This document shows positions 11,394 through 64,000 of a DNA stretch of 64,000 bases, in pieces. The notes under the pieces are model-generated. The model was not told the DNA's origin. It ran no database searches and was given only the letters and a program-made list of their open reading frames with translations. Within the stretch, counting starts at the first letter, position 1; each line of letters opens with the position of its first letter. The stretch is from Dictyostelium discoideum (taxonomy: Eukaryota), in NCBI GenBank assembly GCA_000004695.1, contig CM000155.2, positions 512,001 to 576,000 on the forward strand. Reading direction: 5' to 3'. Made by a program: the position numbers and the translations under genes.

Positions 11394-11706
11394 TTCTTTA
11401 TATATTAATAATTTTTGTATAATTTATAATATCAATTAAAATAAAAAAATAATCAAAGATAATCAAAAAATAAATCTTTATTTTTTACAATTAAATGTAA
11501 ACAAAAAATTAAAAAAAAAAAAAAAAAAAAAAGTTATTTATAAATTTGATATTTCAAGGAATGATTGAAATTATCTCTTGTCTGATTTGAGTTTTTTATT
11601 TTACAGCATTTTTGGAAAAAAAAAAAAAAAATAAATATTTTATTTTTGGATTTGGTGATATTACTATTCTTGTTCTTTTTTTTATTGTAATTGGAAATAG
11701 AGATAA

Positions 11707-12125
11707 TTATTTTTTGTTTTTATGATTGTTCATTATTTTACATTTTGTATTTTTTTTTAAATTTGGTATTTCATTGAATTCTGAAATTGGAATAATATAA
11801 ATTGATTCAAGTGTTGTATTTTGATCGAGCATTGATACAATTGATTTGGTAATTAAATTAATATTCTTTGTTTCAGATTCATAATAACAAATAGTAAAAT
11901 CAAGTGTTAAATTTTTAATTGTTTTATTATTTGCAAGTGAGTTCATAAAATCGTTTAAAAAGTTTTCATTGAATAAACTATTTTCATCCCATCCACATTC
12001 ACCACCACAATCATGAGTAATTGATAAATTTGTAATTGTTGAATTTGTTGATAATAGTTATAAACATTTTTTCCATAGAGACATTGAATATGGTGGTATT
12101 TCTACACATGCAATTATCATGATCC
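11707..12125 (-). pseudogene. C-terminal fragment of an F-box-like/LRR family member, with an in-frame stop and a frameshift
   Basis: Encodes ...LSTNSTITNLSITHDCGGECGWDENSLFNENFLNDFMNSLANNKTIKNLTLDF...LDQNTTLESIYIIPISEFNEIPNLKKNTKCKI. It matches the C-terminal third of the family genes. A TAA falls inside SLWKKCL*LLSTNS. The N-terminal two thirds are absent. Confidence 0.6.
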
Positions 12126-12417
12126 CTAAATGAAAAATAGATTTGGTAATCTTCATTTTTTCAAAAAAAAAAAAAAAAAAAAAAAAAATTTAAAATAAAA
12201 CATTTGTGTTGTAGGGAATTTTCAATAAAATTTCACCATTGTTGTAGGGAATTTAAAAAAAAAAAAAATCAAATTTAAAAAAAAAAAACCCAAAAATCTC
12301 TCTGTTTTTTAATTTTATTTTTTTTATTTTATTTTATTTAATTTATAAAAATGAAATGGAATTTGAATACTATTTTTTTATTTTTTTTTTTTTATTTTTA
12401 TGATTATTCTTTATTTA

Positions 12418-13464
12418 TTATGTAAATATTTTACATTTTGTATTTTTTGTTAAATTTGATATTTCTTTGAATTCTGAAGTTGGAAAAATAACAATTGATT
12501 CAAGTGTTGTATTTTGATCGAGCATTGATGTAATTGATTTTTTTAAATTTATAATGTCTGTTTCAGCATCATAATAACTAAGAGTAAAATCAAGTGTTAA
12601 ATTTTTAATTGTTTTATTATTTGCAAGTGAATTCATAAAATCATTTAAAAAGTTTTCATTGAATAAACTATTTTTATCCCATCCACATTCACCACCACAA
12701 TTATGAGTAATTGATAAATTTGTAATTGTTGAATTTGTTGATAATAGTTTTAAACATTGATTCCATAGAGACATTGAATATGGTGGTATTTCAATACATG
12801 AATTATCTTGATCACTAAATGAACAATAGATTTGGTCATCTTCATTAATACCATCACCAATAGTATCACCTTGGAAATTAATAAAATTTCTAAAATTAAA
12901 ATTATCCATTTTATTAAAATCAAATTCTGTTTTATCACCACCAAATTTACTATTATCATAGATTGAAGATATAAAATGAAATTGAAGGTCGAATTCGAGT
13001 GTATGTAAATTTGGTGATTGTAAAAATCTATAAAGTGCATATAATGGTATGAAGTCACCAAGGATTTCTACACTTTCATAGTTTTGATTTAATTTTGAAA
13101 TTGAGTGATATTGTCGAAGATGTGATTCTCCTGCATCAGAGGAACTAAAGGGTGTTATTTTTAAATATTTTGGATTTAATTCTTTAATCATTTCATACAC
13201 GAATCCATAGGATGTACCTTCTTCATAATCATATTCAACTTCAAATAGATTTGTTTTAAATTTGAATTCTTCTCTTTCAATATGTTCTAATATTTTGGGT
13301 TGATATGGTTTAAAGCAAGCCAAATCCAATTCAAAATTAATTATTATATCTTTATTATTTAATTTGTTTAAATATGTTAAAACCCATACTGAATTTTTGA
13401 ACGAATATTCATTGTCATATGAACATCTAACATTAACAGTTTCTAATGATTTTAAACTATTCAT
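12418..13464 (-). CDS. F-box-like/LRR (RNI-type) tandem family member, N-terminally truncated (348 aa ORF). Family-homologous sequence continues upstream to ~13740 through an (ATT)n poly-N tract but is broken by stops. It may be a pseudogene or a truncated gene.
   Basis: Family motifs MNSLKSLETVNVRCSYD, LNKLNNKD, NPKYLKI, HSISKLNQNYESVEI, PPYSMSLWNQCLKLLSTNSTI, FLNDFMNSLANNKTIKNLTLDF, LDQNTTLESI, NLTKNTKCKI. The upstream frame contains TAA codons before any ATG. Confidence 0.5.
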   Translation of the reverse strand: MNSLKSLETVNVRCSYDNEYSFKNSVWVLTYLNKLNNKDIIINFELDLACFKPYQPKILEHIEREEFKFKTNLFEVEYDYEEGTSYGFVYEMIKELNPKYLKITPFSSSDAGESHLRQYHSISKLNQNYESVEILGDFIPLYALYRFLQSPNLHTLEFDLQFHFISSIYDNSKFGGDKTEFDFNKMDNFNFRNFINFQGDTIGDGINEDDQIYCSFSDQDNSCIEIPPYSMSLWNQCLKLLSTNSTITNLSITHNCGGECGWDKNSLFNENFLNDFMNSLANNKTIKNLTLDFTLSYYDAETDIINLKKSITSMLDQNTTLESIVIFPTSEFKEISNLTKNTKCKIFT

Positions 13465-13964
13465 ATAATTAATTGATTTGTTATTTATTTTAAAGTAATC
13501 AATTATTATTGTTTTAATTAAATCATTAGGAACTAATTTAAATTTGCTATTATTATTATTATTATTATTATTATTATTATTATTATTATTATTATTATTA
13601 TTATTATTATTATTATTATTATTATTATTATTATTATTATTATTATTATTATTATTATCTAAATAAACATGTGGAATATAATGATTGAAAAGTATTTGAG
13701 AATTTTTAAACCAATTCCAATTGACAAAAGAATACTTTTTTATTTTATTTTTTATAAAGCCATCTGTTTTTAATTCTTCATATAATAAATATATTCAAAA
13801 AAAAAAAAAAAAAAAATAATTATTTTGTGATATTTTTGCTGAATAAATGTATTCCAAAAAAAAAAAAACCAAAATATCTTTTCAAAAAAAAAATATCCAC
13901 CAGGTTTATTATTCCAAAAAAAAAAAAATAAAAAAAAAATAAAAATAAAAAAAAATAAAAAATT

Positions 13965-61497: not shown

Positions 61498-61499
61498 TA

Positions 61500-62513
61500 A
61501 AATGGATATTAGCTATAATAAATATTGTTCTGAACAATTAAGATTAATTTCAGATTTTGATAAAATTCAAGAAATATTTGAAATTGTTTTAAAAAATCGT
61601 GCCTGAAATCAAGGTACCCAGGATAATAAAAAAATTTTAAAATTTTAGATAATGTTTATTCACATGGTAAAAATTCAATAATTTTATTAGAAACATTATT
61701 GAACAAATTAGAAATAAATGGAAGCCTAATGAAAAAGTAATTGAAATATTTCATTCAGATGCATCAGTAAATGATTTTTCAAAATTATTTAATTAAGTTT
61801 ATCATTTAAATTCATATTTGAATAAAATCAATAATATTTTTACATATGGTATTGGTAATGAATATGAAAATCAATTAGTACCAGATAATTCAATTGATTT
61901 TATATTTTCATTTTCAACTTTACATTGGGTACCAATTTTAAGTGAATATAAATCATTTGAAGGTTCATTATATATACCAATTACAGATTGTTTATCAGGT
62001 TTTGAAAATTATTATAAAGAAAGATTATTAAATGTATTAAAAATCGTTATTATTAATTAAAAGTCGGTGGTATTTTTTCATGTAATATTTTAATTCAAGA
62101 AGATCAAGGTAGTGAAAATGAAGAAAAAAGTAAATCTATTTATTATTCTATGATAAAAGTTAAAAATATTCTAAGAGAAATGAGTTATGAATCAATTTTA
62201 TCAAGAAAAGAAGTTGAAATGAATATCAATATACAATTGACAAATCAACAAATAATACTGGTCTAAAATTAATTTATGAAAATAGAAAAACTTCTAATTG
62301 GGCTGATAGTGATCAAGATGACGAATCTTATATTGGCTCAATTATTTCAGTTGCTGGTATATTCTTTAAAAATGCTATTAGGTGTGATAAGAATAGAGTT
62401 GATTCAATATTAGATGATTTTGTACAACGTCTACATTTAAAATACAAATTAAATCCGAATGATTTCCAATTTCATCTTTGTAATTTATATTTATCATTTT
62501 TAAAAGAAAATTA
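61500..62513 (+). pseudogene. SABATH-like methyltransferase pseudogene with multiple stops and frameshifts
   Basis: MDISYNKYCSEQLRLISDFDKIQEIFEIVLKNRA*NQGTQDNKK... It runs co-linear to 59564..60610 but the frame is broken many times. Confidence 0.65.
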
Positions 62514-63205
62514 AATAAATTATTAAAAAAAATTATTATTTTTATTATTATAATAATTTTTTTTTTTAAAATATATTTATATTTATCATTTTTAAAAGAA
62601 AATTAAAAAAAAAAGTGAATAAATAAATTTTACAAAATAAATTATTTATTAATTTTAAAACAGAAAATATTTTTCCTTTTTTAGTTTTTTCTTTTTTAAT
62701 TTTATTTTATTTATTTTTTATATCTTTCAAATTAAAACTATTCAAACGATGGCTTGAATAAATTTTTTATCAAAATAAAAAAATCACTAAATCTTTTGAA
62801 CATGACATCATAAATTATGTTATAAAACAAAAGAAATAAAAATTAAAATAAATAAATTGGTACCACTATATAATTAAAAATAAATTTTTTTTTTTTTATA
62901 TTCTTTCATTTTTTTTTTAACCACACCACCTTTATTGAATATGTAACTGCTTTTTTAAATATGTAACTGCTTTTTTAATTGAGAAGTTTGGGAAAACTTA
63001 AGGGGTTAAAAAAAAAAAAAAAAAAAAAAAAAACTTCTGTGTATTAAAAATATGTATAAAACATTTTTACATAAAAATTTGATTTGCTTTTTGTATTTTT
63101 GTAAACTTTTTTCAATATTCCATACAATTATTTTTAAAAATATTTTCATAGCACAATTAAATTTATTTCCAAAAGTTAATTTTAGTTTCAATTTTTTATT
63201 TTAAA

Positions 63206-64000
63206 ATGGATAATAATTATAATAAATATTGTTCTGGACAATTAAGATTAATTTCAGATTTTGATAAAATTCAAGAAATATTTGAAATTGTTTTAAAAAA
63301 TCATGTTAGTAATCAAGGTACCCAAGATAATAATAATATTAAAATTTTAGATATTGGTTGTTCACATGGTAAAAATTCAATAATTGTTTTAAAACCATTA
63401 ATTGAACAAATTAGAAATAAATGGAAGCCAAATGAAAAAGTAATTGAAATATTTCATTCAGATTTACCAATAAATGATTTTTCAAAATTTTTTAATGAAG
63501 TTTATCATTTAAATTCATATTCAAATAAAATAAATAATATTTTTACATATGGTATTGGTAATGGATATGAAAATCAATTAGTACCAGATAATTCAATTGA
63601 TTTTATATTTTCATTTACAACTCTACACTGGGTACCATTATTAAATGAATATAAATCATTTGAAGGTTCATTATTAAATATTTCAATTACAGATCGTTTA
63701 CCAGGTTTTGAAAATTATTATAAAGAAAGATTATTAAATGTTTTGCATCATCGTTATAATGAATTAAAAGTCGGTGGTATTTTTTCATTTAATCTTTTCA
63801 TTCAAGAAGATCAAGATAGTGAAAATGAAGAAAAAAGTAAATCAATGAAAAATTGTACGAAAAAAATTAAAGAAATTCTTAGAGAAATGAGTTATGAATC
63901 AATTTTATCAAGAGAAGAAGTTGAAAATATGATTGTTCCAGCCATAATTTTTACTAGAGATGAATATCAATATGCAATTGATAAATCAACTAATAATACT
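63206..64000 (+). CDS. SABATH-like methyltransferase, apparently intact but partial because it runs off the window end
   Basis: MDNNYNKYCSGQLRLISDF...ILDIGCSHGKNS...LHWVPLL...LHHRYNELKVGGIFSFNLFIQEDQDSENEEKSKSMKNCTKKIKEILREM. The frame is open to position 64000. Nearly identical to pseudogene 16420..17465. Confidence 0.65.
   Translation, partial: MDNNYNKYCSGQLRLISDFDKIQEIFEIVLKNHVSNQGTQDNNNIKILDIGCSHGKNSIIVLKPLIEQIRNKWKPNEKVIEIFHSDLPINDFSKFFNEVYHLNSYSNKINNIFTYGIGNGYENQLVPDNSIDFIFSFTTLHWVPLLNEYKSFEGSLLNISITDRLPGFENYYKERLLNVLHHRYNELKVGGIFSFNLFIQEDQDSENEEKSKSMKNCTKKIKEILREMSYESILSREEVENMIVPAIIFTRDEYQYAIDKSTNNT

Follow-up and report, generated by a model that had tools for sequence, protein, structure and literature searches.

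Polyketide synthase, methyltransferase and acetyltransferase genes around a conserved block on chromosome 6 of Dictyostelium discoideum

Introduction

We analysed a stretch of 64,000 nucleotides (hereafter the window) of chromosome 6 of Dictyostelium discoideum AX4 (contig CM000155.2, positions 512,001 to 576,000; G+C content about 20%). It encodes two polyketide synthases (PKSs), pks40 and pks41, several copies of a SABATH-like methyltransferase, and a Maa/LacA-type O-acetyltransferase. A preliminary description of this DNA had proposed that these genes form a secondary-metabolite neighbourhood, i.e. that the methyltransferases and the acetyltransferase modify what the PKSs make. If real, such a cluster would be a direct handle on one more PKS product of D. 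discoideum. The species has about 40 PKS genes. A 2025 study counts only three pks genes with a functional characterisation (PMC12625978). A full-text literature search with pks40, pks41 and the DDB_G identifiers retrieved no Dictyostelium paper about these PKSs or methyltransferases. Looking up the gene identifiers in the supplements of studies on cell-type RNA-seq (PMC6198379), a developmental time course (PMC4403905) and dnmA RNA-seq (PMC12405889) gave no match either.

Results

Two intact highly reducing PKSs

All the elements named in the preliminary description were located, at positions equal to or within about 45 bp of those it gave. Identities between paralogs range from 75 to 98%, which excludes chance matches and makes them genuine paralogs. 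pks40 (DDB_G0291614) is an intact gene on the reverse strand at 24394..32131 (exons 32131..31501 and 31421..24394), coding for 2552 amino acids (aa). Its tandem duplicate pks41 (DDB_G0291684) lies on the same strand at 33874..41580 (exons 41580..40956 and 40877..33874; 2542 aa). The introns, which we read from the sequence, are of the GT..AG type and span 79 nt in pks40 and 78 nt in pks41. The spliced products are exact matches to the entries 'Probable polyketide synthase 40' and 'Probable polyketide synthase 41'. Pfam profiles gave the same domain order in both proteins, KS-AT-DH-cMT-ER-KR-ACP, and the spliced proteins contain the catalytic motifs DTACSSS, HGTGT, GHSLGE, HxxxGxxxxP, EFGGGVG, GGVG and GVDSL. 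With complete open reading frames (ORFs), all domains in one polypeptide and intact motifs, they are highly reducing iterative type I PKSs, as had been claimed, and each would serve a cluster as an intact core gene forming the scaffold. Neither has a release domain (TE or R) in the Pfam search; both end at the ACP. From this architecture, they are probably self-contained highly reducing PKSs that bring along the domains for C-methylation and reduction, and the acyl chain predicted as their product is reduced and may be C-methylated.

The two PKSs are 93.5% identical in amino acids and 95.5% in nucleotides over 7730 bp. Their divergence is small at both nonsynonymous (dN 0.031) and synonymous (dS 0.092) sites, with a dN/dS of 0.34 (Nei-Gojobori method, as for all such estimates here). 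Only D. discoideum and D. cf. discoideum have relatives that reach 90% identity; across all species, the PKS ranking next is 53% identical. The 95.5% similarity between 24386..32103 and 33865..41558 ends about 10-30 bp from the coding sequence at both ends, and dS varies along the gene from 0.03 to 0.19. Abrupt edges together with a variable dS are consistent with gene conversion homogenising the coding sequence alone. The position of the edges also implies that the 5' regions of pks40 and pks41 are unrelated, and a sensitive blastn search for shared flanks of the two genes returned AT-rich low-complexity matches only.

An array of SABATH-type methyltransferases

Using the intact methyltransferase as a tblastn query, we located its paralogs across the window, all on the forward strand. 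Four of them stand in an array that opens with a 5' half-copy (59007..59492; aa 1-157 at 84% identity, where it ends). The intact gene DDB_G0291580 (59564..60610) comes next, followed by a pseudogene (61502..62511; split by tblastn into five pieces that use three frames, with four frame changes) and by a copy that runs off the window (63206..64000) and has a complete ORF of 348 aa in an AX4-type assembly. The fifth (16420..17465), on the other side of the PKS pair, is a pseudogene, its frame shifted near 16623 and interrupted by an in-frame stop. This agrees with the five copies announced earlier, one intact, one likely intact and three decayed. The array runs on past the window to a window-equivalent position of ~72.3 kb and terminates directly at a DEAD-box helicase gene. 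In assembly JBTAPE010000005.1, which we call AX4-type because its genes at the locus match the window at 100% identity, it comprises nine units between Leg1 and the helicase, five of them with full ORFs. Only three members of the family appeared under the AX4 reference name among the database matches.

The preliminary description had asked whether this family is nearer to carboxyl methyltransferases or to O-methyltransferases. DDB_G0291580 matches PF03492 with E=1.3e-30 (107.1 bits for a gathering cutoff of 29.8, profile positions 12-323 of 335). Its best solved structure is that of salicylic acid carboxyl methyltransferase (SAMT; 1M6E, E=1.6e-11), and further solved relatives are a caffeine-synthase-like enzyme, loganic acid methyltransferase and a bacterial fatty acid O-methyltransferase. 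The motifs that bind S-adenosylmethionine (SAM), DxGCSxGxNS and DLPxNDF, are conserved; an N-terminal SY..S..Q aligns across 17 family members; and W142 aligns to W151 of SAMT. By their counterparts in the SAMT structure, this Gln and this Trp would hold the carboxylate. Profile, structures and motifs thus assign the family to the SABATH/carboxyl type and not to the class-I O-methyltransferases, and its members are probably small-molecule carboxyl methyltransferases.

The methyltransferase paralogs of AX4 show a dN/dS of 0.40-0.67 at a dS of 0.09-0.16. When the single gene of D. citrinum is compared with the D. discoideum copies, dN/dS is 0.16-0.21 and dS is 0.42-0.48; this comparison, which spans both lineages, shows constraint. 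The copy at 16420..17465 is 97.6% identical in nucleotides, over 1168 bp, to the eighth unit of the array (stretch L007, 8671..9834, beyond the window). The copy is a dead and very recent ectopic duplicate of an array unit. The idea that tailoring enzymes flank the PKS pair on both sides therefore comes down to a recent stray duplicate that is already inactivated, and we do not retain it. The live array begins 17.4 kb from pks41, past six unrelated syntenic genes, so that these would-be tailoring genes are not contiguous with the core genes.

Relatives of the methyltransferase occur across Dictyostelia, in D. purpureum (36-39% identity), Cavenderia fasciculata, Tieghemostelium lacteum and Synstelium polycarpum. 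On the strength of these matches, an uncharacterised SABATH clade exists across Dictyostelia, and the homologs in four other dictyostelids rule out a recent horizontal transfer. At three D. purpureum loci, no PKS was found within 10 kb of the methyltransferase homologs. The D. purpureum stretches L002 (11073..13972) and L010 (12997..14089) carry such homologs. One locus adjoins two zinc-type alcohol dehydrogenase genes and another is near a 2OG-Fe(II) oxygenase gene; these neighbours may belong to small-molecule metabolism, and none is a PKS. Within the discoideum group, a divergent SABATH-type methyltransferase of D. cf. discoideum (ACTFIZ_000307; 369 aa, 35% identical) lies on another contig, so the family is not strictly confined to this locus.

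An acetyltransferase older than its PKS neighbours

The acetyltransferase gene DDB_G0291538 (21329..21874, forward strand) codes for a Maa/LacA-type hexapeptide O-acetyltransferase with Hexapep and Mac domains (PF00132, PF14602 and PF12464). Its best matches among solved structures are the maltose transacetylase 2IC7 (E=3.7e-50), 1OCX (1.5e-47) and 1KQA (5e-44). It resembles the bacterial Maa/LacA enzymes in its hexapeptide left-handed beta-helix, in its Mac cap and in a His aligned to the His of 2IC7 in TA(G/T)H. It differs from them in scoring below the NCBIfam equivalog cutoffs (178.8 bits against 314 for Maa, 155.8 bits against 347 for LacA), which makes it a member of the Maa/LacA family and not an equivalog. 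A decayed partial duplicate on the same strand (23788..24149) stops 245 bp short of pks40, whose 3' side it faces. By tblastn it aligns to aa 14-154 (49% identity), having lost an internal segment and changed frame, and in nucleotides it is 90.3% identical to 21543..21872 over 331 bp. Pfam and tblastn thus recovered both the gene and the decayed copy that the preliminary description had reported. The intact gene is 2.5 kb from the PKS pair; between them lie this decayed copy and a decayed gene of FamX, an orphan family described below.

The acetyltransferase is 96% identical to that of D. citrinum (dN/dS 0.07, dS 0.30) and 90% identical to that of D. firmibasis (dN/dS 0.11, dS 0.43). It is syntenic in both species, with no PKS at that place in D. 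firmibasis and beside a wrecked PKS in D. citrinum. Synteny thus indicates that it is ancestral at the locus and predates the PKS there, and the low ratios indicate that it is under strong purifying selection whether or not it has a live PKS as neighbour. In vegetative cells the gene is transcribed and the protein has been detected (PMC12405889, PMC10252828). By contrast, the pks genes that were profiled, except pks16, are poorly transcribed in vegetative cells, a general statement in which pks40 and pks41 themselves are unchecked (PMC9618038). The difference is indirect evidence against co-regulation. Given its history and conservation, we do not regard the acetyltransferase as a tailoring enzyme dedicated to pks40 and pks41; most likely it has a general Maa-type O-acetyltransferase role with no relation to the PKSs.

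Comparison with sister species and strains

Six unrelated genes occupy 44339..58269, between pks41 and the methyltransferase array. Pfam identifies them as a Grwd1/Rrb1-like WD40 gene (44339..45876, reverse strand), a type I DnaJ (47072..48367, forward), an Exo1-like XPG nuclease (49048..52580, forward), an EB-module Cys-rich protein (52716..53706, reverse), an NPC1_N-like gene (from 54754, reverse) and Leg1/DUF781 (57331..58269, forward). Their order is identical in D. citrinum (stretches L003 and L001) and in D. firmibasis (L004 and L011). The full order in D. firmibasis is g9975, two FNIP-type genes, the acetyltransferase, Grwd1, DnaJ, Exo1, the Cys-rich gene, NPC1_N, Leg1, two FNIP-repeat genes and the DEAD helicase, and tblastn found no trace of the PKS, the methyltransferase or FamX at this locus. 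In D. dimigraforme, no methyltransferase or PKS adjoins Leg1.

The locus of D. citrinum has the same conserved block, no intact PKS and one intact methyltransferase. A wrecked PKS lies 780 bp downstream of the acetyltransferase; pieces of it cover aa 108-199, 1897-2168 and 2356-2479, with frame changes and heavy deletion. Its summed score against the pks40/41 group is 457 bits, and that against the next PKS is 219. This wide margin identifies the remnant as a decayed ortholog of pks40. The single methyltransferase, near Leg1 and one FNIP gene, has an ORF of 353 codons and is 80% identical to its D. discoideum counterparts. A second decayed PKS is found between this methyltransferase and the DEAD helicase (L001, about 11480..12700). 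Pieces of it are spread over aa 717-1898 of the best match, ACTFIU_006709.

Strains of D. discoideum also differ. The wild strain ACTFIW (JBTAPG010000039.1) has both pks40 and pks41 intact, and inside its methyltransferase array it carries an extra intact PKS, ACTFIW_000318 (2525 aa; L006, 1680..9362). This gene is 640 bp upstream of, and co-oriented with, the intact methyltransferase ACTFIW_000319 (10001..11053). With DDB_G0271530 and DDB_G0295667 it shares 86% identity. AX4 lacks it, i.e. the gene is a presence/absence polymorphism. We had considered the second D. citrinum remnant as its ortholog and rejected this, because the best match of the remnant is in a subfamily that differs from that of the ACTFIW PKS, as it does from that of pks40 and pks41. 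In the ACTF* assemblies, locus_tag numbers do not follow position along the contigs; the coordinates contradict a gene order based on them.

These comparisons reveal little co-inheritance. The acetyltransferase and the methyltransferase outlive the PKS in D. citrinum, and the acetyltransferase occurs without a PKS in D. firmibasis. The sole co-variation between the PKS and the methyltransferase is their first appearance in the same lineage. Since the dS between paralogs (0.09-0.16 for the methyltransferases, 0.09 for the PKSs) is lower than that between species (0.3-0.48), the amplifications are younger than the split between D. discoideum and D. citrinum. Intact copies beside decayed ones, at such a low dS between paralogs, bear out the rapid turnover that the preliminary description had inferred.

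Other features of the variable intervals

FNIP-repeat genes fill the same variable intervals in two sister species. D. firmibasis has four (L011, 12173..16632; L004, 4940..9738), one pair by Leg1 and the other upstream of the acetyltransferase; D. citrinum has one (L001, 5800..7728). The interval between Leg1 and the helicase in AX4 holds the methyltransferase array in place of FNIP genes.

The preliminary description made no mention of FamX, which forms a tandem array on the reverse strand at 11713..23519, as delimited by tblastn. Three copies are intact, at 12418..13464 (DDB_G0291642), 14360..15919 and 18842..20518, one is decayed (21897..23519), and there are fragments besides, including some at 1..314 of the window. 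The methyltransferase pseudogene and the acetyltransferase are both embedded in this array. Sequence searches with FamX gave no Pfam, NCBIfam or PDB match. An AF2 model of low confidence (mean pLDDT 52) has alternating strand-helix repeats, and Foldseek retrieved for it ribonuclease-inhibitor, NLR and F-box leucine-rich repeat (LRR) domains at TM scores of only 0.2-0.34; the model suggests that FamX probably has an LRR fold. A single copy occupies this place in D. citrinum and two lie near Leg1 in D. dimigraforme; there is none in D. firmibasis. A tRNA scan of the window found none. The output of a scan for promoters and terminators of bacterial type was at chance level, the method being unsuited to a eukaryote.

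Discussion

Two proposed islands around a conserved block

What is shown above, namely which genes these are, how their order changed between species and how strongly they are constrained, favours a simple account of the locus, which we regard as moderately probable. A conserved block, made of the acetyltransferase, the Grwd1-like gene, DnaJ, Exo1, the Cys-rich gene, the NPC1_N-like gene and Leg1, would be bordered by unstable islands in which lineage-specific families are gained, tandemly amplified and lost. In the first island, between the acetyltransferase and Grwd1, a pks40-like gene and FamX would have been gained in the common ancestor of D. discoideum and D. citrinum. Then, in D. discoideum, duplication of the PKS would have given pks40 and pks41 and FamX would have been amplified, while the PKS decayed in D. 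citrinum. In the second island, between Leg1 and the DEAD-box helicase, one SABATH-type methyltransferase would have been gained in the same ancestor. It would have been amplified to about nine units in D. discoideum, of which one stray copy moved into the first island and died. With an ancestral acetyltransferase, separate islands and self-contained PKSs, proximity would reflect shared residence in a turnover-prone region and not a co-adapted pathway. We also infer that, at ~20 genes per 50 kb of the window, finding a tailoring-like fold near any PKS by chance is unsurprising. The preliminary description thus holds for the identity of the genes and for their turnover, but its proposal of a shared pathway finds no support in contiguity or in co-inheritance.

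Several observations weigh against this account. The pks40-like gene and the close methyltransferase lineage share their first appearance, which falls in the discoideum/citrinum lineage and within one region of ~60 kb, and in D. discoideum both expanded at similar dS. The preliminary description held that a lack of co-regulation, together with methyltransferase or acetyltransferase copies at many unrelated loci, would indicate chance proximity; in the searches we ran, close methyltransferase copies were not scattered and occurred at this locus only. A PKS has landed by the methyltransferases at least twice more, intact in ACTFIW and decayed in D. citrinum. These two PKSs are of different subfamilies and hence represent independent insertions, which fit a duplication-prone island and would equally fit selection for linkage. 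There is also a reasonable chemical link, in that a PKS lacking a release domain plausibly yields an acid and the methyltransferase keeps the residues predicted to bind a carboxylate. A role of the methyltransferases in polyketide modification is therefore possible, although synteny gives it no support.

Alternative explanations

One could take these points further and propose a genuine, if loose, biosynthetic neighbourhood, where the acid made by pks40 and pks41 becomes a methyl ester through one or more array methyltransferases and a hydroxyl is acetylated by the acetyltransferase. The distances from the intact PKS pair (2.5 kb to the acetyltransferase, 17.4 kb to the array) speak for such a scheme, and so does the absence of TE or R from both PKSs. 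A SABATH-type enzyme with the Trp and Gln motif and a fatty acid O-methyltransferase among its solved relatives would suit the chemistry, and the PKS and methyltransferase lineages do arise and expand jointly in the discoideum/citrinum lineage. We nevertheless find the scheme unlikely. The acetyltransferase keeps a dN/dS of about 0.1 beside no PKS or a dead one, and is expressed in growing cells, where published profiling found the examined pks genes other than pks16 poorly transcribed. The methyltransferase of D. citrinum remains intact, with the low dN/dS reported above, though the pks40 ortholog was destroyed. Finally, six unrelated syntenic genes intervene and the left-flank methyltransferase is dead. 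The contrary proposal, that the PKS pair and the array are functionless duplicates heading to decay, with no pathway at all, could appeal to the many pseudogene copies in the region and to the decay of the pks40 ortholog in D. citrinum. It is highly improbable in view of two complete PKS ORFs (2540-2552 codons) with all catalytic motifs and a dN/dS of 0.34, both intact in ACTFIW as well, and of five methyltransferase units with full ORFs.

The extra PKS of ACTFIW raises the question of whether the methyltransferases have a partner within their own island. The true pairing could be that of the array with a PKS of the second island, as in ACTFIW_000318 and ACTFIW_000319, in which case pks40 and pks41 would be bystanders and AX4 would have lost the partner, leaving the array orphaned and partly decaying. 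The intact 2525-aa PKS of ACTFIW stands 640 bp upstream of a methyltransferase on the same strand, with methyltransferase sequence on both sides; PKS remnants lie directly downstream of the D. citrinum methyltransferase; and four of the nine array units of AX4 are pseudogenes, with a dN/dS between paralogs of 0.4-0.67. Yet the ACTFIW gene belongs to the subfamily of DDB_G0271530 and DDB_G0295667 and the D. citrinum remnant to another, so that no partner is conserved, and the D. purpureum homologs have no PKS neighbour. As PKSs are among the genes most prone to duplication in these genomes (PMC3188802), their repeated landing in an unstable island is expected, and we think that this pairing is very unlikely. 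A broader version would see the dictyostelid SABATH methyltransferases as dedicated partners of highly reducing PKSs, esterifying the released polyketide acids. The locus would then be a young, strain-polymorphic module under assembly, with pks40 and pks41 on one side and the ACTFIW PKS in the array, and the fast-diverging methyltransferase copies would be diversifying the range of products or substrates. This conjecture seems to us quite unlikely, and the shared residence of the genes in a turnover-prone region continues to be our preferred explanation.

Comparison with known systems

The preliminary description cited the DIF-1 pathway as a precedent for linkage between a PKS and a methyltransferase. 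In that pathway stlB and the halogenase gene chlA are immediate neighbours with a common promoter region and DmtA is unlinked: chlA adjoins stlB, 'but not DmtA' (PMC9489281). The DIF-1 pathway hence has no known linkage of a PKS with a methyltransferase, and the precedent falls. The stlB-chlA pair does resemble what was proposed for this locus, as it places a Dictyostelium PKS physically beside a gene whose enzyme modifies what the PKS makes. The difference is that the live methyltransferases are here 17.4 kb and six genes off, which makes a common promoter impossible. Furthermore, DmtA is an O-methyltransferase (PMC9489281), whereas the enzymes described here are of the SABATH type. Real two-gene metabolic clusters do exist in D. 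discoideum, some with partial or pseudogene copies nearby. For DdTPS8-CYP521A1, also on chromosome 6, co-expression and consecutive reactions have been demonstrated, and in the other TPS-CYP pairs of the species the partners are 580-3148 bp apart (PMC6524965). Whether verified or proposed, the metabolic pairs of Dictyostelium stand side by side, unlike the PKSs and the live methyltransferases studied here, and we count them in favour of shared residence.

PKS genes expand in a lineage-specific manner in these genomes (PMC3188802). pks40 and pks41 belong to the same large family as PKS5 (dictyodene) and the stand-alone PKSs of D. discoideum, which are developmentally used. Its subfamilies consist of highly similar recent duplicates, such as pks5 and pks7 (about 88% identical), but pks40 and pks41 differ from PKS5 in being without an assigned product. 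The methyltransferases share PF03492, the SAM motifs and the Trp and Gln positions with plant SABATH enzymes (Clarkia SAMT, PDB 1M6E) and with the bacterial fatty acid O-methyltransferase (PDB 5F2K); they differ from 1M6E by their low identity to it and by forming a dictyostelid clade. The clusters of fungal highly reducing PKSs are similar in their iterative KS-AT-DH-cMT-ER-KR-ACP enzymes, with products often tailored by separate methyl- or acyltransferases. In fungi, the genes of such a cluster lie side by side, are regulated together and pass on as one unit, whereas contiguity and co-inheritance both fail at this locus.

The comparative evidence therefore advises against the use of proximity alone as a handle on the products of pks40 and pks41. 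It yields instead a dated origin of the PKS pair and of the methyltransferase array, in the lineage of D. discoideum and D. citrinum, and the recognition of a dictyostelid SABATH clade. For testing a link between the two kinds of enzyme, the PKS and methyltransferase genes that lie 640 bp apart in the wild strain ACTFIW are the better case.

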